From assembly GCA_965221905.1 (NCBI GenBank), contig OZ244922.1, forward strand, positions 3,382,956-3,446,955: a DNA stretch of 64,000 nucleotides, given 5' to 3'. Positions 7,558 through 41,776 of the stretch are shown here, one piece after another (the stretch's first letter is position 1; every line of letters starts with the position of its first letter). The notes under the pieces were generated by a model. It searched no databases, was not told the origin of the DNA, and worked only from the letters and a program-made list of their open reading frames with translations. The position numbers and the translations under genes were made by a program. This stretch comes from Chloroflexota bacterium (GTDB lineage: Bacteria; Chloroflexota; UBA11872; VXOZ01).

Positions 7558-8406
7558 ATGGGCCCAATAGTTGACACCTGGATGCAACTTCCCACAGAGA
7601 AACTGCAGCGGGAAGCGAAGGTGCCCGTGCGCATCGTGCCTGACCGCCCGGCCCTCTACGCTGCCTTTGCCCGCGAAATTGCCGACGAGATAAAGGCCCA
7701 TAACGCCGCCGGAAAGCCGACAGTCCTCATCTTGCCCGTGGGGCCGATCGGCCAGTTCTCGGTGCTTGCCGATATCTGCAACCGCGAGCGTATCTCATGG
7801 CACAATGTATGGACGTTCAACATGGACGAGTATTGTGATTGGGAAGGGCGCTCGATTCCGCTCGACCATCCGCTAAGCTTCGAGGGGTACATGCGCGGAA
7901 AATTCTTTGCACGGCTCGACCCCGACTTGCGCATACCGGACGACCATGTTTTCTTTCCACGCATCGAGCGCATCGACGAGGTAAGTAATACCATCGCCGG
8001 GCTCGGCGGCGTGGACTCCTGCTACGGCGGGATCGGCATCCACGGCCACGTGGCCTTCAATGAGCCGCCCATCAGCCGCTTCTACCAGGTCACGCTGGAG
8101 GAATTTCGCCAATCGCGCACCCGCGTCCTGCCCCTGGCCCCGGAGACGATGGTGATGAATTCCATCCGCCGCATGGGCGGCAACTTCTATACCTTCCCAC
8201 CCATGGCAATTACTCTCGGCATGAAGGACATCCTGGAGTCGCGCCGCATCCGCCTCTACTGCGACGGCGGCGACTGGCAGAAAGCCATCCTGCGCATCTC
8301 CCTGCTCGGCGAGGTCTCCACCCACTACCCGGTCACGCTGCTCCAAGAACACCCGGACGCCCTAATCACCGCCGACGCCGAGACTGCTGCTCCGCTGGCA
8401 ATCTAG
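7558..8406 (+). CDS. glucosamine-6-phosphate deaminase/isomerase family protein (NagB/6-phosphogluconolactonase superfamily)
   Basis: VLILPVGPIG, WTFNMDEY (cf. NagB TFNMDEY), GIGIHGHVAFNEP (cf. GVGNDGHIAFNEP); RBS-like AAAGGAG upstream. Confidence 0.8.
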   Translation: MGPIVDTWMQLPTEKLQREAKVPVRIVPDRPALYAAFAREIADEIKAHNAAGKPTVLILPVGPIGQFSVLADICNRERISWHNVWTFNMDEYCDWEGRSIPLDHPLSFEGYMRGKFFARLDPDLRIPDDHVFFPRIERIDEVSNTIAGLGGVDSCYGGIGIHGHVAFNEPPISRFYQVTLEEFRQSRTRVLPLAPETMVMNSIRRMGGNFYTFPPMAITLGMKDILESRRIRLYCDGGDWQKAILRISLLGEVSTHYPVTLLQEHPDALITADAETAAPLAI

Positions 8407-8445: not shown

Positions 8446-9063
8446 CTATTGTCCGCTTATCCTTTCAAGCTCATTGAGAAAGCGGGCCGCGTAGGGAGAC
8501 TTACAGCGCACCTTTACTGGATTTAGTTCTGCTAGTATTTCGAAACTGTGTTTACCCTTGTTTTTGTAATACCCGCCTTTCTTAGTATCGCGAGTAGCCT
8601 GCTCTAATCTATTCTCGATGTCTCGTTTAGAAACTTGCTCAATTCTCTGATTCTTTGGAAGCACGTCTATGCGGAAGTCCTTGCCATAATACGACTTGAG
8701 CGCTTCCGGATCTGCCAGAAGCCAGGATTCCATCACTTGCACCATCAAATGACATTGATGATCGGTTGCAACTCTAGGACGATTCCAGTTGTCAGGTGCT
8801 TCTTTCAGATGTTGCCATGGCTTGGCTCTTGTTGCCGGTGCCTTTACTGGTCTCTCGGCATCAACTAGCAGAAATGCAACGCAGTCCCTATCAGCGAGAC
8901 CAGCCTTGAAGTCTTCAAGAGCGTCCGTGCGTCTGCCACACGGAACAATCTCAAACTTTCTTCCGTCTAATCCAGCTTCCTCAAGAAACTTCCGAAAACT
9001 TCTGCGACACGTCGGGTTCAGCGCCTTGCTACCGCCACCTTCTACGAAAACTCGGACTTTCAC
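8446..9063 (-). CDS. DUF4276-like protein (putative TOPRIM-like nuclease partner of the AAA ATPase)
   Basis: N-terminal VRVFVEGGGS resembles the hVEGxTE opening of DUF4276/OLD-type TOPRIM; central MVQVMESWLLAD block; likely starts at a GTG (V12 of the ORF), immediately after the stop of the upstream ATPase; region visibly lower in GC. Confidence 0.5.
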   Translation of the reverse strand: MKVRVFVEGGGSKALNPTCRRSFRKFLEEAGLDGRKFEIVPCGRRTDALEDFKAGLADRDCVAFLLVDAERPVKAPATRAKPWQHLKEAPDNWNRPRVATDHQCHLMVQVMESWLLADPEALKSYYGKDFRIDVLPKNQRIEQVSKRDIENRLEQATRDTKKGGYYKNKGKHSFEILAELNPVKVRCKSPYAARFLNELERISGQ

Positions 9064-10379
9064 CAAAGGTTCCCTCCGAGTTGTCCCCGCGTCCAAAGTT
9101 CGCCAAGACGGTATTTCTCCAGCCAGACTTGGAGGTCGTCTGCATCAAGGCGCCGCAGTTGTGTCGCCCCATCGACCCTTTCACAAATCACCACTGCCTC
9201 AGGTGTTTCAGAAAGTGCATCCACGAGGACGTCGGAATGGGTCGTGACGACAATCTGACTGCGCTCAGATGCTTCGACTAGCAGTTTCGCCAAACCAGGT
9301 ATTACATCAGGGTGTAGGCCCATTTCCGGTTCTTCGATACAGACAATTGGCGGTGGCTCTGGGTGACACAGTACAGCAAGTAAGCAAAGATACCTAAGTG
9401 TACCATCGGACATTCGTGTTGCTGGCACTGTTTCGTGCAGGTCTCTCTCATGAAGGGACACTTGTACTAACCCGCCTCGCACGACAGAGACAATGTCTCT
9501 TACCGTAGGACAGAAATCCTGCAAGTGCATCAGGATTGTCTCTTTTGTGCGCGGACGGTCCAGTAGATCGCTCAAGACCACTGCAAGATTGGAAGCATCC
9601 TCAGCCAGGAAGTCCTGAGGTAGGTCGGCGGGCTGCGGCTGCCGTGGCCGCGCATTGTGACCGAGCTGAAACTCTCGATACAAGCGTATACGCTCAAATT
9701 GCTTAGCTAAGTGCGTCAACTCGGGGTATGACCTTGGATCCCTTCTCTGGGACAAGATGGACTGGTCGTGCCTTACATCTTCCACCCGCACCAGGCCTTG
9801 TTCAGCTAGGTCCTCATACCTTCCGTCTATCGTCCTTGGAAGAGATTGTCGTTCTTCCTTGGGCCGTTGTTCATTGTCGTCATTCTCGGAATCGTTATCT
9901 TCGGTATCGACGTGGACTTTTATGGCTGGATAGCCGCCCCGATAGCTGTAATGGCAAGGGGTGACTTGACTCTCTGGCCACCACACCGGTGTGTGGGCCT
10001 CTTCGTCTCTTAAGTCAAACCGTGCTCTGACCTCGGAAAAGGACAGCCAGTACTTTAGTGGACTAGGCCTTGCAGGCATGACTACTGGGCCGCCGAAGGC
10101 TACTTCCGGGTATTCGACCAGAACTTCGATGGTTGCAGTTGGTGGGTATTGGGTACCCTTCCAAAGCCACTCATGGACACCTCCTGTCTCATGGAATGGA
10201 GACTGAAGATCCCGGGGTGCTGCGTGAAGTAAAGACAACGCCTCAATGAGGTTCGACTTTCCAGAAGCGTTCGGTCCTACCAACACATTCAGTGGTTCTA
10301 GTTTGAACGAGGAGGAGTCCGGGCCGTAGGAGAGGATATTCTCCAGACGAATTGAATACAAGAACCTTCTGCCGTTCAT
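9060..10379 (-). CDS. AAA family (ABC/SMC-like, AAA_21-type) ATPase
   Basis: Walker A LVGPNASGKSNLIEAL; signature/Walker B/D-loop region CIEEPEMGLHPD...VVTTHSDVLVDAL; acidic insert HVDTEDNDSENDDNEQ; contiguous with the downstream DUF4276-like gene. Confidence 0.8.
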   Translation of the reverse strand: MNGRRFLYSIRLENILSYGPDSSSFKLEPLNVLVGPNASGKSNLIEALSLLHAAPRDLQSPFHETGGVHEWLWKGTQYPPTATIEVLVEYPEVAFGGPVVMPARPSPLKYWLSFSEVRARFDLRDEEAHTPVWWPESQVTPCHYSYRGGYPAIKVHVDTEDNDSENDDNEQRPKEERQSLPRTIDGRYEDLAEQGLVRVEDVRHDQSILSQRRDPRSYPELTHLAKQFERIRLYREFQLGHNARPRQPQPADLPQDFLAEDASNLAVVLSDLLDRPRTKETILMHLQDFCPTVRDIVSVVRGGLVQVSLHERDLHETVPATRMSDGTLRYLCLLAVLCHPEPPPIVCIEEPEMGLHPDVIPGLAKLLVEASERSQIVVTTHSDVLVDALSETPEAVVICERVDGATQLRRLDADDLQVWLEKYRLGELWTRGQLGGNLW

Positions 10380-10772
10380 GTGGTTAGCCTTTGCTTATTC
10401 ATCGATATGAACGACCCCAAATGGAGTACTGAATTCTGGCAATAGAATTGCTATCCTATTCGCTCATCTAATGGAACAGTGCCATGTGCCCTATGTCAAG
10501 AGGAGGCGATTCACTTCAGGATGTGAATTGCAGTGAAAGTGCAATTGAACAGCTCTTGCCGGGTAGGTAGATAGACTCGAAGCTGCATTTCCTTTGTTTT
10601 GCCATCTTTTGACTACGGGATTTCAACCTACGGACGCAAATCGACTAAAGCGGTTCAAGCCGTTTGGTAGAATTGTACTTGTGAATACGAGATCGTGCCT
10701 CTAACTGCAATTTGGCAGTTAGTCTCAAAAAAACAAGCGTATCAAACGAATATTTGAGGAGGATATAATCCC

Positions 10773-11780
10773 ATGGCAGTGCAACAGGATCCGATTAGGT
10801 TTGGCATTATCGGTTTAGGAGTGGGCAAGTCGCGGGTTAAGCAGGCGGCGAACACGGCAGGGGCGCAGTTGGTGGCAGTTTGCGATTTGCAGGAATCGCT
10901 CGCCACGGCGCAGGCGGCGGAATACGGCTGCGACTGGCACACCGACCACCGCGCGTTGCTGGAGCGGCAGGACATCGACGCGGTAGGCATCTTCACGCCC
11001 AGCGGCACCCATGGCGACCTCGCTATCGAAAGCCTCCAGGCGGGCAAGCACACCTTTACGACCAAGCCCATGGACGTCACCACAGCGAAGATAGACCAAG
11101 TGCTTGCCGCCGCGGAGGAGAGCGGCCGCTTGCTGGCCGTGGACTTCCAACGCCGTTATGAGCTGACCACGCGCCTGATTAAGCAGGCAATAGACGCGGG
11201 CAGGATCGGCCGCCCGATATTTGGCGACTTCCGGCTGAAGTGGTACCGCGCCGACAGTTACTTTGCCGGAGGGAATCCGCCCGGGTGGCGCGGCACCTGG
11301 AAATACGACGGCGGCGGCTCGGCGGCAAACCAGGGCATTCACGGCATCGACCAGACTCTTTGGTTCATGGGGCCGGTGCAGAGCGTGCGTGCGCGCATCA
11401 ATATCTTTAACCATGACATTGAGACCGAAGACGCCTTGGAGGCACTGGTTACCTATGCGTCCGGCGCGTGGGGCATCATTCAGACAACGACAACCGTCTA
11501 CGGTGGCCTAGGGCACGAGCATGAGATTCACGGCACCGACGGCACCATCCAGATGCGGCAAGAGGGTATCACAACGTGGGAATTTCTCGACAGCCCTGAC
11601 GGCGGCATGCCCGACCCCGCAGAGCTTCCGCCCGGCCCCAAGAACATCATCGAAGATATGATCCAAGCGTTAGTAGACGGCAAGCCGACGGCGTGCACCG
11701 GCCCGGAAGGCCGCAGATCCGTTGAGTTGCTGGAAGCCATGTACACCTCGGCGCGCGAGGACCGCGAAGTTACGCTCTAG
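10773..11780 (+). CDS. Gfo/Idh/MocA family NAD(P)-dependent oxidoreductase
   Basis: N-terminal Rossmann IRFGIIGLGVGKSRV...VAVCDL; GAGGAGG RBS; family-typical length. Confidence 0.85.
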   Translation: MAVQQDPIRFGIIGLGVGKSRVKQAANTAGAQLVAVCDLQESLATAQAAEYGCDWHTDHRALLERQDIDAVGIFTPSGTHGDLAIESLQAGKHTFTTKPMDVTTAKIDQVLAAAEESGRLLAVDFQRRYELTTRLIKQAIDAGRIGRPIFGDFRLKWYRADSYFAGGNPPGWRGTWKYDGGGSAANQGIHGIDQTLWFMGPVQSVRARINIFNHDIETEDALEALVTYASGAWGIIQTTTTVYGGLGHEHEIHGTDGTIQMRQEGITTWEFLDSPDGGMPDPAELPPGPKNIIEDMIQALVDGKPTACTGPEGRRSVELLEAMYTSAREDREVTL

Positions 11781-11936
11781 AGTGGCCTCGGGATTTTTCG
11801 TGGTCTGCTCGGATTCCAAGGCGCGCAATATGCGGGCGCGCCTTGCGCACCATTAGCCATAGATCTGCCGTATGGCAGGCAACGTGGTACCATTGCCGCT
11901 AAGAAATAGACTTCGGCAGTCAAGGATTTGTGATCT

Positions 11937-13754: not shown

Positions 13755-13819
13755 GGGTCCGATCTCCTCGGCTCCTAAAGTTTACGTCTCCGTTCAGTGT
13801 ACCGGAGAAGTCGGAGACA

Positions 13820-14790
13820 CCGTTCGTGCTGAGCCCGTCGAAGTACGAGTGAAGGGGTGAGAATTGCGGAGTTCCCGTTCACCTTTCGACAAGCTCAAGG
13901 CGAACGGTGTGGTTGGCGTTTTGTGAGGCTCCAGGCGAACGGTGAGGATGGCTTTTTGTGATGCTCCGGTCGAACGGTTGAGTGAGGGGGCATTGCGACG
14001 CTGAATGCAAACTTTCGTGTGGTGAAGTGGCCGCGGCTCCGTTCGTGCTGAGCCTGTCGAAGCACGGGCGAATGGGTGCGAGTTGTGGAGTTCCCGTTCA
14101 CCTTTCGACAGGCTCAAGGCGAACGGGAAGGTTGGTGTATCGTGAGGCTCAAGGCGAACGGTGAGGATGGCGCTTTTTGATGCTCCGGTCGAACGGTTGA
14201 GTGGGGGCATTGCGACGCTGAATGCGAACTTTCGTGTGGTGAAGAGGCCGTCGCTCCGTTCGTGCTGAGCCTGTCGAAGTACGAGCGAAAGGGTGCGAAT
14301 TGCGGAGTTTCCGTCCACCTTTCGACAAGCTCAAGGCGAACGGAAAGGTTGGTGTATCGTGAGGCTCCAGGCGAACGGTAAGTATGGGACTTTGTGAGGC
14401 TCAAGGCGAACGGTGAGGATGGCGCTTTTTGATGCTCTGGTCGAACGGTTGAGTGGGGGCATTGCGACGCTGAATGCTAACTTTCGTGTGGTGAAGAGGC
14501 CGCGGCTCCGTTCGTGCTGAGCCTGTCGAAGCACGGGCGAATGGGTGCGAGTTGTGGAGTTCCCGTTCACCTTTCGACAAGCTCAAGGCGAACGGTAAGG
14601 TTGGCGTTTTGTGAGGCCCCAGCGAACGGTAAGTATGGGACTTTGTGAGGCTCAAGGCGAACGGTGAGGATGCGCTTTGTGATGCTCCGGTCGAACGGTT
14701 TAGCGGGGGGCATTGCGAGGCTGAATGCGAAATTTCGTGTGGTGAAGAGGCCGTGGCTCCGTTCGTGCTGAGCCTGTCGAAGTATGAACG
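13820..14790. repeat. tandem array of about 220-260 bp composite units (4 full copies plus a partial), built from short palindromic modules (CCGTTCGTGCTGAGCCTGTCGAAG, CCGTTCACCTTTCGACAAGCTCAAGGCGAACGG)
   Basis: unit starts at about 13820, 14039, 14257, 14518 and 14759; ORFs across it read as repetitive peptides (FALSLSK..) on both strands. Confidence 0.85.
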
Positions 14791-26190: not shown

Positions 26191-26264
26191 GGTGACCCGC
26201 CAGGGACTCGAACCCCGAACCCACTGATTAAGAGTCAGTTGCTCTGCCATTGAGCTAGCGGGCC
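26191..26264 (-). tRNA. tRNA-Lys (anticodon CTT)
   Basis: minus-strand GGCCCGCTAGCTCAATGGCAGAGCAACTGACTCTTAATCAGTGGGTTCGGGGTTCGAGTCCCTGGCGGGTCACC: 7-bp acceptor stem (one G-U), anticodon stem ACTGA/TCAGT with loop CTCTTAA, T-arm GGTTCGAGTCC; CC encoded, terminal A not encoded. Confidence 0.9.
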
Positions 26265-38783: not shown

Positions 38784-39239
38784 TTACAGAATGTGTAATC
38801 TGCGCATTGTCCACTTACAAATTGAGTGCCAGACGTATTTCCACAATACCGGTGATGTTGCGTCTTTCACTATGCAAGTGCCCAGGCCAATGACTCCGCC
38901 AAATTCCTCTGCCTTCTTGTAGCGGTCCTGGATTCGTATTCTTGTGATCCGCTCTTCAGACATGGCTGGTGCCCACTCAACCTTATTGCGTTTGATCCAG
39001 TAGTGGGATCGACACGCAATGCTCCAGTTACCAATTGACGGCTGAAGAGAAACGGACTTGCCGTCGAAGGTCATTTGCCAGTCAGTAGGGTCTAGGGGCG
39101 TGACTACTTCGATCCCGCAACCGCAACAACACTTGTGGACTACTGTTGCGAAAGGAATTGACACGTACAGTACACCCTCGACTAGGTCTTCAGGGATGAA
39201 ATGAACGAACTCGTGGAAGAGAGAGTTGATTCGAGTCAC
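38784..39239 (-). CDS. Cys-cluster protein of unknown function (HKCCCGCG), third gene of the Ubl-E2/E1 operon
   Basis: 151 aa; GTG start overlaps the stop of the upstream gene (GTGA); Cys/His candidates VVHKCCCGCG...SIACRSHYW...WHSIC; no HxH JAB motif, no HNH motif; low GC. Confidence 0.55.
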   Translation of the reverse strand: MTRINSLFHEFVHFIPEDLVEGVLYVSIPFATVVHKCCCGCGIEVVTPLDPTDWQMTFDGKSVSLQPSIGNWSIACRSHYWIKRNKVEWAPAMSEERITRIRIQDRYKKAEEFGGVIGLGTCIVKDATSPVLWKYVWHSICKWTMRRLHIL

Positions 39240-40408
39240 GTTTGGTTCTCGTTGATCAGACTGTTACCATCTATCTCGTAATAGCAAGAGTGCTCACTCT
39301 CTAGGTCTGTATAGAATCCCATGAGCTTTTTCCACTTGATCACAGCCAAAGCTGCATTCAAAGCGTTGAGATCGGCAATCTGAATGTTGCGTAAGTATTC
39401 ATTCTCGCCATTTTCATCTGAGAACGGTATGGTCGAGTGAATGTGGCTGCGTTCGTCAACTGTACTTGTTGTAACTCTCAACACGCCAAGCAGTGAACCG
39501 TCTACTTCGTTCACCCCCATCCCTGCATCTATGAATGGCACGCCGAACTCACACAGCTTCTCAACCACGAGTCTCCTGCTAAATCCCCTATCGACCGCTA
39601 GAAAGACAAAATCCATATTGCGAAGCCTATCAATTGTCGATTCTTCAAGGAAGTCATGGGCGAAAATGCGGTTCCGCATCTGAGAATAAACGTTGCAAAA
39701 GTACTCGGCTTTCTGTGGCGCCTTTACCAGGGTCTCCAAAGACGGCGCTCCGGGTGAGCGAAACGCGTTATGCTGCCCAAACCTGTCACCATCGAATAGA
39801 TGGATTTCTTTCACGGGCGTCTTAGCTACTAGGTCAAGAATGTATGAGCCAGTGCCCCCCAGTCCAACAATCGCTACTGCGCCGATGGCAAGTTTATCGG
39901 TCACAGCGACGATGCCAGATCGGCTCGACGCCGTATCAATATACTTAAACACCGAGTCGTCACCTTGAGGCTCGACAATCGAGAAGGTTTGGATCTTCAA
40001 GTTAGGATTGATGGATAGAGCGGGCCCAGAAACGATATGCGCGTAGGTGGTCATCTTCTCGTAATAGTCGTGGTACCCTTCACTTGGCTTGCTTGAAAAC
40101 GTATGGTCAATCACTAGACCACTAGCTAGCTCCCTGCGGGTGCTGGAGTTATGGATCTGCGTTAGTGGACGTCCCTCTTGGTCGCAAGGCATCTCTCCGG
40201 CGAACATCACAACATGAGTACTCGGTCTTGCTGTGACATTGCCTGCTAACGACAATTCTGCAACCAAAGTGCCTCGGGAAATGTTGCGCTCGCTCGTGAC
40301 GTAAGGGATGCCTCTTAATAGAAGATGGCCGGATCGGATCTCAACTTCGTGCCCTTCGCCTTGAAGCCGACTGAGGTCCGGGCTAAGACTTATCAGTGAT
40401 TGTGACAT
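39236..40408 (-). CDS. E2-like N-terminal domain fused to E1-like ThiF/MoeB adenylyltransferase domain (Cap2/BubCD-like architecture)
   Basis: C-terminal half has ThiF motifs VAIVGLGGTGSYILDLVAKTPVKEIHLFDGDRFGQHNAFR (GxGxxG nucleotide loop, D-x-D...N-x-x-R); N-terminal about 170 aa has a single Cys in HVVMFAGEMPCDQEG, compatible with a UBC-like catalytic centre; overlaps the upstream Ubl gene by 26 nt. Confidence 0.65.
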   Translation of the reverse strand: MSQSLISLSPDLSRLQGEGHEVEIRSGHLLLRGIPYVTSERNISRGTLVAELSLAGNVTARPSTHVVMFAGEMPCDQEGRPLTQIHNSSTRRELASGLVIDHTFSSKPSEGYHDYYEKMTTYAHIVSGPALSINPNLKIQTFSIVEPQGDDSVFKYIDTASSRSGIVAVTDKLAIGAVAIVGLGGTGSYILDLVAKTPVKEIHLFDGDRFGQHNAFRSPGAPSLETLVKAPQKAEYFCNVYSQMRNRIFAHDFLEESTIDRLRNMDFVFLAVDRGFSRRLVVEKLCEFGVPFIDAGMGVNEVDGSLLGVLRVTTSTVDERSHIHSTIPFSDENGENEYLRNIQIADLNALNAALAVIKWKKLMGFYTDLESEHSCYYEIDGNSLINENQT

Positions 40409-40637
40409 TAAAGATTGTTCCTTTCTGAATCTTTACCTTTTGGTCAGGAAAGAGCCGCCCATTTGGTGGTCTACCCGCGCCGTCGCGATAGGTGACAGTT
40501 ATCTCGATATACGGACCCGATGGCACTGGATCGTAGGCGAGTAAGACGACGACGTCGAAAGATATTTCATCAGAATTGACTACCTTCTTGCGGCCGTTCA
40601 CGATAATCTGTACTTTTTCCTTTTCGTCAATCATCAT
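40383..40637 (-). CDS. small beta-grasp (ubiquitin-like / multiubiquitin-type) protein, no C-terminal Gly
   Basis: 84 aa, no Cys, alternating beta-strand-like segments (KVQIIVNGRKKVV, FDVVVLLAY, YIEITVTY, KVKIQKGTIFNVTI); AAGGAG RBS 6-7 nt upstream; ends ...TITDKS. Confidence 0.5.
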   Translation of the reverse strand: MMIDEKEKVQIIVNGRKKVVNSDEISFDVVVLLAYDPVPSGPYIEITVTYRDGAGRPPNGRLFPDQKVKIQKGTIFNVTITDKS

Positions 40638-40645
40638 TAGACTCC

Positions 40646-40754
40646 TTGCAATGTTGCAAAAACAATTATCAGTACCATATGTGGTACACTTTCAATCTAC
40701 ACTGTGCGTACTGCCCGTGTCAACCCAAAATGGTACTTGTACCGTTTTAAGTAC
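40646..40754. promoter_or_regulatory. divergent promoter/operator region with GTAC-core palindromes
   Basis: TTGCAATGTTGCAA (40646-40659); perfect 16-bp palindrome GTACCATATGTGGTAC (40672-40687); AAAATGGTACTTGTACCGTTTT (40727-40748, one mismatch); lies between the divergent Ubl operon and the XRE gene. Confidence 0.55.
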
Positions 40755-40764
40755 AGGAGGTTTT

Positions 40765-41235
40765 ATGGCTGCAGGTAAGATAGAGCTTGGTGACCTAGGC
40801 CGTCTTGTCGCGGCTGAGCGGGATCGACGCGGCCTAAGTCTTCGCGAAGCGGCAAGTGCGATTGGAATTCCCTTCAACACCCTGGCGCGAGTGGAAAAGG
40901 GACACGTGCCTGACCTTCCAAAGTTCAAGAGGCTCGTGGAGTGGTGTGGTGCCGATATAAACCAGTTCTTTGAATGGCAGGAGAAAGCTGCGTCGACAAC
41001 AGACATTATCGCTGAACACCTTCGATCTGATCCAAGTCTGCCTGCTGCCGCTGCTGACCAAATCTCAAGAATCGTTAACGAACTCTATCAAGCTCTAGCA
41101 GTTCCGCAAGAGTTTTCTGCAGCGCATCTACGGGCAGCAACCACTTTCAAGCCAGAAGCGGCGCGCGCGCTCGGGACACTCTTACAGGACTTGAATGAAG
41201 CGCTTCTGAAGGAAACTGAACATGGCTCTGCGTAG
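40765..41235 (+). CDS. XRE-family helix-turn-helix transcriptional regulator (CapH-like)
   Basis: AGGAGG RBS 7 nt upstream of the ATG; HTH LSLREAASAIGIPFNTLARVEKGH; 156 aa with C-terminal helical domain. Confidence 0.75.
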   Translation: MAAGKIELGDLGRLVAAERDRRGLSLREAASAIGIPFNTLARVEKGHVPDLPKFKRLVEWCGADINQFFEWQEKAASTTDIIAEHLRSDPSLPAAAADQISRIVNELYQALAVPQEFSAAHLRAATTFKPEAARALGTLLQDLNEALLKETEHGSA

Positions 41236-41776
41236 AGGGTTTAAGTCTGAGGCGGAGAGAATTGCGGAGGGCATCCGAAGAGAACTCGGACTGAGTTCCG
41301 CTGAATCGGTTTCGCCCGATGCAATTGCCGAACTTCAGGGTGTACAAATCGTGGCAGGCGACGAATTGATCCCCCGTCAACGATTTGTTGAGCTTGAAAA
41401 TATACAAACAGGAGCCTTTTCAGCATGCACATTACGACCTTCTCCCGATCGCGTTGTCATTGTGTTCAACCCTCTATCAGCCGAGTCCCGCCGCAAAAGC
41501 GATCTAGCCCATGAACTTGCACACCTACTCCTCAACCACAAGTTGAGTCGGATTGAGAGGCTCGGTGAGATTTCCTTTCTAACATGCGATTCGGTTCAAG
41601 AGGCGGAGGCTTCCTGGCTATCAGGCTGCTTACTGCTACCTCGAGCGTTGCTATTGTCGGAGGTCCGCAGGGGTTTGAGTTCTGTTGAAATTGCCGAGAA
41701 ATGTGGTGTGAGTGAACAGATGGTGCGTTACAGAACTAATGTTACTGGTGTGCTAAGGCAGAGCCAGGCCCGCTGA
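41222..41776 (+). CDS. ImmA/IrrE family zinc metallopeptidase (CapP-like)
   Basis: HEXXH motif in DLAHELAHLLLNH typical of DUF955/ImmA; overlaps the XRE gene by 14 nt. Confidence 0.75.
   Translation: MALRRGFKSEAERIAEGIRRELGLSSAESVSPDAIAELQGVQIVAGDELIPRQRFVELENIQTGAFSACTLRPSPDRVVIVFNPLSAESRRKSDLAHELAHLLLNHKLSRIERLGEISFLTCDSVQEAEASWLSGCLLLPRALLLSEVRRGLSSVEIAEKCGVSEQMVRYRTNVTGVLRQSQAR

Follow-up and report, generated by a model that had tools for sequence, protein, structure and literature searches.

Genes of the cassette

This study concerns a pair of overlapping genes at positions 8446 to 10379 of a 64,000-nucleotide stretch of DNA from a Chloroflexota bacterium (assembly GCA_965221905.1, contig OZ244922.1), which is referred to below, at its full length, as the window. 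The upstream gene encodes an ATPase of the ATP-binding cassette (ABC) type and the downstream gene a small protein of the DUF4276 family. A reading made earlier from the sequence alone (the original prediction) had proposed the two as a candidate defence pair resembling OLD, PARIS or Gabija. A PADLOC search identifies them as HEC-01A and HEC-01B, and it is almost certain that the locus is a member of the HEC-01 family. The system itself is already catalogued, as a candidate family; the new part is a fixed chromosomal slot occupied by what are very probably ancient, recombining HEC-01 alleles. The main features of the cassette are the following (aa, amino acids):

8446..9063, minus strand: HEC-01B, a 205-aa DUF4276 protein, Toprim-like predicted metal-dependent nuclease
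9060..9077, minus strand: translational-coupling junction, with GGAGG at 9077..9073 and a GTG start at 9063..9061 overlapping the TGA stop at 9062..9060
9060..10379, minus strand: HEC-01A, a 439-aa ABC-type (SMC/Rad50/PtuA/OLD-like) ATPase of Pfam family AAA_21, with an ATG start
10380..10772, no strand assigned: AT-rich divergent intergenic region, presumed promoter region, allele-specific, with a guanine-plus-cytosine (GC) content of 0.43

The junction was read directly from the sequence (...GGAGGGAACCTTTGGTGAAAGTC...). The ATPase ends in G-G-N-L-W followed by TGA, and this stop codon and the GTG start of HEC-01B share four nucleotides as GTGA (9063..9060), with the Shine-Dalgarno motif GGAGG nine bases upstream of the GTG. 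The original prediction had the ATPase stop abutting the start of a 200-aa protein beginning VRVFVEGGGS; the overlap bears out the junction, the quoted residues are present and the small gene is there, its product being 205 aa from the GTG start with the N-terminus MKVRVFVEGGGS. In the list of open reading frames (ORFs) the longest frame of the small gene spans 8446..9096 (minus strand). The 205-aa reading is the one that follows from the GTG start, and a public gene call (P0001) has exactly the same product.

The lower-GC patch in which the pair had been placed is real. GC content is 0.516 over the pair and 0.589 over the whole window, which puts the pair in the lowest 5% of equal-sized windows, and in the comparison with the flanks GC at third codon positions (GC3) is 0.46 and 0.53 in the two genes against 0.76-0.81 in the neighbouring ones. 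The pair is therefore of foreign composition relative to its host, and among 59 full-length loci 88% have a pair with GC below that of its flanks (mean difference -5.7 points). The intergenic region upstream of the ATPase cannot be aligned with that of the nearest relative, L081 (33-48% identity), despite flanks whose proteins are 95-98% identical. No sigma-70 consensus was found upstream of the ATPase, promoter and terminator consensus scans gave nothing useful, and Rfam contains no RNA family matching in or near the cassette.

Both proteins match HEC-01 (Hma-embedded candidate 01; PADLOC-DB v2; Payne et al. 2024, 10.1101/2024.01.29.577857) over their full length and in the same gene order, the genes being adjacent and co-oriented with A upstream of B. 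The ATPase matches the HEC-01A profile PDLC04177 with E 1.5e-154 and 512.7 bits (protein residues 5-439, model positions 3-393 of 393), and the small protein matches the HEC-01B profile PDLC04201 with E 3.4e-71 (model positions 2-198 of 202). Within PADLOC the small protein matches HEC-01B models only, and within Pfam only DUF4276 (6e-23, full profile); no NCBIfam model matches it. HEC-01 was discovered embedded in Hma, BREX or DISARM operons, a context that the profile definition does not require and that is not found here, where the pair stands alone among metabolic genes. Relative to other HEC-01 members, the ATPase of the window has about 40 extra residues in its variable insert.

The ATPase and its variable insert

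HEC-01A matches AAA_21 over the full profile (1.1e-38) and also matches SMC_N. Its motifs were assessed for invariance in an alignment with 54 homologues:

9237..9239, minus strand: H-loop histidine H381 (VTTHSD); T379, T380, H381 and S382 invariant
9324..9341, minus strand: Walker B CIEEPE, C347-E352; E349, E350, P351 and E352 invariant; followed by the D-loop GLHPD
9402..9416, minus strand: ABC signature-like RMSDG, R322-G326; R322, S324, D325 and G326 invariant
9705..10154, minus strand: hypervariable beta-rich insert, aa 76-225
10254..10277, minus strand: Walker A (P-loop) GPNASGKS, G35-S42; invariant as G35-x-N37-x-S39-G40-K41-S42
Within the same gene: Q-loop Q211 (SILSQRRD), invariant among the aligned homologues

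Walker A and the C-terminal H-loop motif VVTTHSDVLVDAL had both been named in the original prediction, and both are present. At least 7,943 homologues of the ATPase were found at E<=1e-10, the closest of which, beyond the protein's own copy, is 60% identical in a search of 5.8 billion clustered proteins.

The AlphaFold 2 (AF2) model of the ATPase has a mean predicted local distance difference test score (pLDDT) of 78 and a predicted template-modelling score (pTM) of 0.81. Foldseek matches it to an SMC head (4i99, E 3.5e-12), to PtuA of Septu and retrons (8sux, 8ee4 and 9nnb, among the best fold matches), to the Thermus OLD protein 6p74 and to Rad50. In sequence-profile searches of the PDB, the best match is AriA of PARIS (8ux9, 5.8e-7, over 63 residues), and further matches to OLD, the OLD protein of retron Eco8, PtuA, SMC and GajA are all confined to the motif regions.

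The most variable part of the protein is the insert at aa 76-225, which lies between the Walker A helix and the Q-loop and is modelled with strands at 82-90, 106-117, 120-129, 142-147 and 150-154. Two insertions within it are private to the window allele: one spans roughly aa 91-105 and the other, which is strongly acidic (DTEDNDSENDDNEQRPKEERQ), roughly aa 151-195; AF2 confidence is low at aa 98-102 and 159-186.

A predicted Toprim nuclease

The AF2 model of the DUF4276 protein is of high confidence (pLDDT 93.3, pTM 0.89). Its elements follow in the order beta1 (2-7), alpha1, beta2 (37-41), alpha2, beta3 (61-67) and, further on, beta4 (104-106), with a helical C-terminal half, and Foldseek finds a single meaningful relative for it in the PDB: the Toprim-containing C-terminal region of the Burkholderia pseudomallei OLD protein (6nk8; probability 0.99, template-modelling (TM) scores 0.54/0.55, E 1.3e-2), the remaining matches being noise. 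By the AF2 model and this match, HEC-01B has the four-stranded parallel-sheet alpha/beta fold of the Toprim type. An alignment of 60 homologues adds a set of invariant acidic residues:

8710..8730, minus strand: E112 (MESW) and D118, further acidic residues; invariant
8854..8862, minus strand: D68-A69-E70 directly after beta3 (LLVDAE), acidic motif equivalent to DxD; D68 and E70 invariant
9040..9042, minus strand: Toprim-type glutamate E8 at the end of beta1 (VEGGG); invariant in the 60 homologues

With its glutamate at the end of beta1 and two acidic residues following beta3, this layout resembles that of Toprim, the two residues forming DxE rather than DxD. The likeness comes from the fold match to 6nk8 together with the invariant acidic residues, and not from sequence: profiles for Toprim, OLD-Toprim, DUF4435 and RloB match none of the 60 family members even at E<=10, and no solved relative is detectable by sequence. 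The original suggestion that the small protein is DUF4276- or TOPRIM-like therefore stands for DUF4276 and, by fold, for Toprim, with no match to a Toprim or DUF4435 profile. HEC-01B is predicted to be a nuclease with a Toprim fold and a complete acidic metal-binding set. Payne et al. (10.1101/2024.01.29.577857) independently describe HEC-01 as an ABC ATPase together with a TOPRIM protein with a conserved metal site, HEC-01B keeping the metal site of BpOLD, and the Menshen study, also independently, assigns both DUF4276 and RloB to the Toprim superfamily, identifying Mad4 of the MADS system as a DUF4276 protein (PMC12065111).

A fixed slot between nagB-like and MocA genes

On one side the pair adjoins a divergent glucosamine-6-phosphate-isomerase-like (nagB-like) gene (7558..8406, plus strand), and on the other a GFO/IDH/MocA oxidoreductase gene (MocA; 10773-11780), beyond which lie genes for a xylose-isomerase-like TIM barrel and a polysaccharide deacetylase. 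The neighbours are thus as originally described, a nagB-like gene and a sugar-oxidoreductase cluster, and the pair lies on the strand opposite to both of the immediate ones. Twelve related Chloroflexota loci carry the pair at this same position, with flanking genes 83-99% identical, and in one further locus the slot is empty (12/13 occupied); all of the comparison genomes are metagenome-assembled genomes (MAGs). The states of the slot are:

Occupied, pair intact: L001, L002, L003, L010, L081, L164, L165, L166, L169/L170
Occupied, three transposase genes inserted beside the pair: L082/L083
Occupied, DUF4276 called at 97 aa only: L168, 8046-8669; tblastn aligns residues 20-203 across the region, and the ATPase is intact
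Empty: L167, 7849-8073; nagB-like stop at 7849, MocA start at 8073, 223 bp between them

The DUF4276 gene of L168 is, from this alignment, probably a decaying (frameshifted) nuclease gene. The 223-bp spacer of L167 resembles the intergenic DNA of none of the occupied slots, homology ending at the coding borders, and because the intergenic DNA is unrelated the exact insertion point cannot be mapped from this comparison. No target-site duplication, integrase or tRNA gene was found at the slot. A metagenome scan with the nagB-like probe returned 80 more distant nagB-like loci (<=65% identity), none of which has the pair, so that the slot appears to be lineage-specific. Together with the empty slot of L167, this shows that the lineage carries the pair as an accessory cassette, which does not belong to the sugar cluster.

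The same comparisons dispose of the notion that the two genes are a functional part of the adjoining sugar-metabolism cluster, a reading to which the constancy of their position between nagB-like and MocA in 12 related loci had lent some appeal. The pair is transcribed from the strand opposite to both neighbours, the two neighbours are still adjacent in L167 without it, none of the 80 more distant nagB-like loci carries it, and in more than 70 loci from other phyla it sits among unrelated genes. We regard the idea as refuted, and what was to have undone the original prediction, namely a small protein without a DUF4276 match and a pair forming a conserved metabolic operon in relatives, has failed to appear on either count.

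Insertions also occur in the slot. In L082/L083 the interval 9105-11861 between the pair and the nagB-like gene holds DDE_Tnp_1_4, HTH_23/29 and DDE_3 transposase genes together with a 188-aa ORF, which indicates that the slot also attracts insertion sequence (IS) elements. L169 has a PIN + PhdYeFM toxin-antitoxin pair (13767-14340) within a few kb of its slot.

Divergence and probable exchange of slot alleles

What sets this slot apart is the divergence of its occupants. L081 agrees with the window at 95-98% identity in the flanking proteins, compared with 57% for the ATPase and 72% for the DUF4276 protein; between the window and L164, MocA is 99% identical and the ATPase 51%. The ATPase of the window, whose nearest relative is 60% identical, is an extreme example. 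Sliding DNA identity between the window and L081 places the edges of the divergent tract as follows:

8700..10750, no strand assigned: exchanged cassette tract relative to L081, the nearest relative; left breakpoint inside the DUF4276 gene, right breakpoint just before the MocA start codon (10773)
Up to about 8700: identity >=87%; flank and last third of the DUF4276 gene
8700-9750: 50-80%; remainder of DUF4276 and C-terminal part of the ATPase
9750-10150: 10-45%; insert of the ATPase, where an indel of 40 aa lies
10100-10350: 63-75%; ATPase sequence at the Walker A end
10350-10750: 33-48%, near the random level; intergenic region upstream
From about 10750: 83-91%; from 20 bp before the MocA start codon onward

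Silent changes follow the same borders. By the Nei-Gojobori method, the synonymous divergence (dS) between the window and L081 is 0.06-0.20 in five flanking genes and 1.25 or saturated in the cassette, where the ratio of nonsynonymous divergence (dN) to dS is 0.10-0.16 wherever it can be computed (about 0.12 for the ATPase). Within the DUF4276 gene the C-terminal 85 codons have a dS of 0.40 and the first 120 codons are saturated, and in the ATPase insert (aa 76-225) dN is 0.57. For the complete set of 45 pairs among ten genomes, four-fold-degenerate sites give a difference of 0.11-0.39 for the flanks and of 0.38-0.67 for the cassette, which is the more divergent in 45 of 45 pairs, and the two quantities are uncorrelated (Spearman 0.12, p = 0.42).

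As judged from their protein identities, the ATPase and DUF4276 halves of the cassette have discordant relationships:

L166-L165: ATPase 84%, DUF4276 50%
L169-L081: ATPase 74%, DUF4276 58%
L169-L083: ATPase 63%, DUF4276 71%
Window-L081: ATPase 57%, DUF4276 72%

MocA is itself a mosaic, the L083 copy being 96% identical to that of L003 and 88% to that of the window, when the other L083 flanks are 93-97% identical to the window; recombination tracts thus seem to reach into the flanking gene. A neighbour-joining (NJ) tree nonetheless unites the slot alleles in a single clade, whose branches are very long. Among 11 of them, column identity is 0.86-0.94 in the nucleotide-binding core (the Walker A block and aa 346-405), 0.00-0.53 over ATPase aa 76-225 and 0.41-0.52 over aa 271-300.

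From the purifying selection, the saturation at silent and non-coding positions, the sharpness of the breakpoints and the discordance of the two halves, taken together, we conclude that the slot alleles are very probably far older than the genomes that host them and circulate within the lineage, and that homologous recombination, via the conserved flanks as well as inside the cassette, has very probably swapped them. The divergence could also have arisen in place, through hypermutation or positive selection acting locally and with no exchange of old alleles. Such acceleration would agree with the single clade formed by the slot alleles, whose topology is roughly compatible with the relationships of the flanks, and with the concentration of variation in the putative recognition insert, and a local hypermutation process retains a small probability. 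It sits poorly with a dN/dS of about 0.10-0.16 rather than above 1, with synonymous and non-coding sites that are saturated when flanks 100 bp away are 90-98% identical, with sharp breakpoints, one of them inside the DUF4276 gene, and with the discordance between ATPase and DUF4276. Furthermore, no reverse transcriptase or other diversification machinery lies near the pair, and its GC3 has not been ameliorated toward the host value. We therefore consider acceleration in place quite unlikely. Positive selection in situ, in particular, is rejected by a dN/dS of about 0.1 with saturated synonymous sites, and simple drift does not fit the sharp breakpoints, the discordant halves and the saturated sites.

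An autonomous pair in many phyla

A scan of genomes for DUF4276 relatives yielded 80 loci, from Chloroflexota/Dehalococcoidia, Gemmatimonadota, Acidimicrobiia, Myxococcota, Planctomycetota, Acidobacteriota and several proteobacterial classes. An ATPase homologue stands directly upstream of DUF4276 in all 80, and in nearly all of them the end of the ATPase gene meets the start of the DUF4276 gene; pairwise distances for the two proteins are correlated (Pearson r=0.71). The pair is thus an obligate, autonomous unit. Some record names among the relatives (Spongiisociaceae, Palauibacter, SB0662_bin_44) may point to an origin in sponge symbionts.

Clustering of the neighbouring ORFs of the 80 loci shows no third family accompanying the pair beyond lineage synteny and an occasional BrxC, and a three-gene system is rejected for want of any recurrent third gene. 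BrxC, the sole recurrent neighbour outside synteny, is directly upstream in five loci (PADLOC BrxC, E = 0). L171 (507-10932), the single IMG/VR "viral" contig to hold the pair, reads BrxF-BrxC-[HEC-01A-HEC-01B]-PglX-[HEC-02A-HEC-02B]; in this BREX operon two different ATPase-nuclease candidates are embedded next to each other. Such embedding in BREX occurs only among distant relatives of the window pair. A 605-aa database protein, the singleton P0185, joins the ATPase and DUF4276 in one frame, fused exactly at the overlap (…GGNT-LVSVRLYVEGGG). As a singleton it may result from an indel error where the genes overlap by 4 nt; alternatively, it is a natural fusion of a rare kind, comparable to merged AriAB in PARIS.

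Among phages there is one match, a 27%-identical ATPase in phage RCS47 that is annotated recF. Carriage on a phage, satellite or plasmid, as in PARIS, is rejected for this subfamily, which is near-absent from the corresponding collections, themselves biased towards cultured hosts.

Relation to known ATPase-nuclease systems

PARIS, AbiL and MADS3-4 have been grouped in the literature as systems that combine an ABC ATPase with a Toprim protein, and the window pair shares this architecture. In Mad3-Mad4 of MADS, the methylation-associated defence system of Pseudomonas aeruginosa, an AAA_21-type ABC ATPase is likewise followed by a DUF4276 protein, and both are needed for defence. The MAD3 equivalog NF047739, however, scores 89.2 bits against a cut-off of 420, and the mandatory mad6, mad7 and mad8, any other mad gene and a methyltransferase are missing nearby, so that any methylation-based logic of self and non-self is absent. 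PARIS also has two genes, an ABC ATPase (AriA) and a separate Toprim effector (AriB, DUF4435), and in both systems the recognition surfaces of the ATPase are poorly conserved. The effector of the window pair is a DUF4276 protein rather than DUF4435, with no cross-match between profiles. PADLOC's AriA model PDLC02980 matches the ATPase (2.2e-36) over the same coordinates as the generic AAA_21 profile and far more weakly than HEC-01A does. PARIS is often borne by phages or satellites, unlike the HEC-01 pair subfamily, which is almost absent from phage, plasmid and viral collections; and AriA and AriB reportedly co-evolve without frequent swapping, whereas the slot alleles show discordant ATPase and nuclease relationships.

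The OLD proteins (class 1, P2 Old; class 2, GajA of Gabija; class 3, retron Eco8) combine an ABC ATPase with a Toprim nuclease as well. OLD, GajA and Eco8 carry both domains on a single polypeptide, and here they are in two genes with no reverse transcriptase; the acidic motif is DxD in OLD and DxE in the window pair. Gabija would further call for an adjacent UvrD-like GajB helicase, which is missing, and the match to GajA (8sm3) is weak and falls in motif regions (8.8e-4). Septu and the PtuA-PtuB retrons pair an ATPase with a nuclease in two genes, but PtuB is an HNH nuclease rather than a Toprim protein, and the NCBIfam PtuA model scores 22.7 bits against a cut-off of 500. On these defining features, membership of OLD, Gabija, PARIS, MADS, Septu and RecFR is rejected. 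The proposal of a defence pair is supported, and its likeness to OLD, PARIS or Gabija lies in the architecture of an ATPase with a Toprim-like partner: the pair is akin to all three and a member of none, its family being HEC-01.

RecF and RecR deserve separate mention, because an SMC-like ABC ATPase with a Toprim partner might also serve in housekeeping or accessory DNA repair, acting on host lesions in the manner of RecF-RecR. RecR carries a Toprim domain, the ATPase matches SMC_N and, weakly, the RecF equivalog TIGR00611, its fold matches SMC and Rad50 heads, and the sole phage match is annotated recF. Yet the RecF score is 28.6 bits where the cut-off is 172, relatives of the pair are embedded in BREX, and, unlike core repair genes, the pair is accessory, hypervariable and compositionally foreign, with a history decoupled from that of its host. 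A role in repair is therefore highly improbable.

Proposed function

Taken as a whole, we read the locus as a standalone HEC-01 ATPase-nuclease module with a role in defence, whose ancient alleles are exchanged at a fixed slot, and we give this reading a probability of roughly 0.65. That this allele acts against phages or mobile elements is probable in our view. Relatives of the pair are embedded in BREX, with BrxC upstream in five loci and the arrangement of L171 as described above, and a representative of HEC-01 gave E. coli B protection from one or more of the phages T4, T5 and T7 (PMC12881386).

One can picture how the two proteins might work together, and we hold the following scheme at about even odds. 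An oligomer of the ATPase would be the sensor and regulator, and the beta-rich hypervariable insert between Walker A and the Q-loop would recognise a cue of infection. Binding or hydrolysis of ATP would then license or release the Toprim partner, which would cut nucleic acid (DNA or tRNA) and so abort the infection. The scheme follows the logic of PARIS, OLD, Gabija and Mad3-Mad4 of MADS; the defence role of this allele, the assignment of sensor and effector and the substrate of the nuclease are inferred. Variation among the alleles points to ATPase aa 76-225 as the likely specificity determinant; Payne et al. (10.1101/2024.01.29.577857) propose that specificity is set by this region, their "Insert 1/2". 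In MADS, deletion of mad3 or mad4 reduces defence, and losing mad5 is lethal except in combination with a deletion of mad2 or mad3 (10.1101/2023.03.30.534895); the Mad3 ATPase module is thereby implicated in self-toxicity.

The pair might instead be a selfish addiction module, similar to a toxin-antitoxin (TA) system, in which the Toprim nuclease is a toxin restrained by the ATPase and the genes are kept since their loss is harmful. Pfam labels AAA_21 a "putative AbiEii toxin, Type IV TA system", the slot is filled in 12 of 13 related loci, and purifying selection (dN/dS about 0.1), foreign composition and the lack of a defence phenotype in one study would all suit such an element. It would leave unexplained, on the other hand, why variation falls in a surface insert of the ATPase, why relatives lie embedded between BREX genes and why one phage assay was positive, and the empty slot of L167 and the decayed allele of L168 indicate that loss is tolerated. 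Pure addiction is accordingly unlikely as an account of the locus. Many abortive-infection systems are TA-like, so that this possibility overlaps with a function in defence rather than excluding it.

Several observations weigh against the defence module with exchanged alleles that we favour. A HEC-01 representative placed in E. coli MG1655 gave no protection against the BASEL collection and classic coliphages (Payne et al., 10.1101/2024.01.29.577857), so that the defence phenotype of the family depends on one positive report. The assignment to Toprim was made from fold and motif, with a Foldseek E value of 1.3e-2 and no link through sequence profiles, and the acidic motif is DxE instead of the canonical DxD. 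No other recognised defence gene adjoins the pair in the window. The genealogy of the alleles is an NJ tree built on p-distances from MAGs, and saturated dS gives no dates. Finally, with one match in phages, none in plasmids and one contig in IMG/VR, the pair is almost absent from these collections and no vehicle for its exchange was found.

A more tentative possibility, to which we would give somewhat less than even chances, is that the slot represents a long-lived balanced polymorphism of a single innate-immunity locus, in which phages impose frequency-dependent selection on alleles older than the species that carry them, the flanks recombine and the halves are re-assorted. If so, the alleles of the slot would form a natural series with which the targets recognised by ABC-ATPase/Toprim defence systems could be mapped, and the re-assortment of halves would imply a conserved ATPase-nuclease interface alongside a freely diversifying recognition insert at aa 76-225. 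HEC-01 is among the most abundant candidate defence families in environmental genomes, and its activity is disputed. The slot offers a natural experiment in this respect, since it consists of near-identical genomes that differ almost only in their HEC-01 allele, along with one empty and one decayed slot. The re-assorted ATPase and nuclease halves suggest that the interface between them is conserved, and standalone HEC-01 pairs outside defence operons appear to behave as exchangeable immune cassettes.

Other features of the window

The wider surroundings of the pair include genes for a major facilitator superfamily (MFS) protein, DUF6807, the deacetylase, the TIM barrel, MocA, the nagB-like protein, a RodZ-like protein and a CDP-OH transferase. 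The nagB-like protein encoded at 7558..8406 is a member of a divergent subfamily: it scores 21.8 bits with Pfam Glucosamine_iso, for which the gathering threshold is 27. Over 1,400 homologues match it at E<=1e-60, and many are named glucosamine-6-phosphate deaminase (JGI).

A second low-GC patch, at 38784-41776 (minimum 0.488), contains another overlapping two-gene module on the minus strand, made up of a 390-aa DUF6791 + ThiF/E1-like protein (39236..40408) and a 151-aa DUF6527 protein (38784..39239). Divergent from it are genes for a helix-turn-helix (HTH) protein (40576..41235) and a Peptidase_M78/ImmA-like protein (41222..41776; PADLOC capP, 1.6e-10). PADLOC returns no full system match for the DUF6791/DUF6527 module, which has the appearance of an E1-like candidate for defence with regulation of the CapH/CapP type.

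The sole Rfam match in the window is a tRNA gene at 26193-26264 on the minus strand. The tandem array at 13820-14790 has 2.7 copies at 88-91% match, its periods being about 217/252 bp with a sub-repeat of 35 bp; the array is crossed by spurious ORFs and is also present, at differing copy numbers, in L081, L083 and L003.

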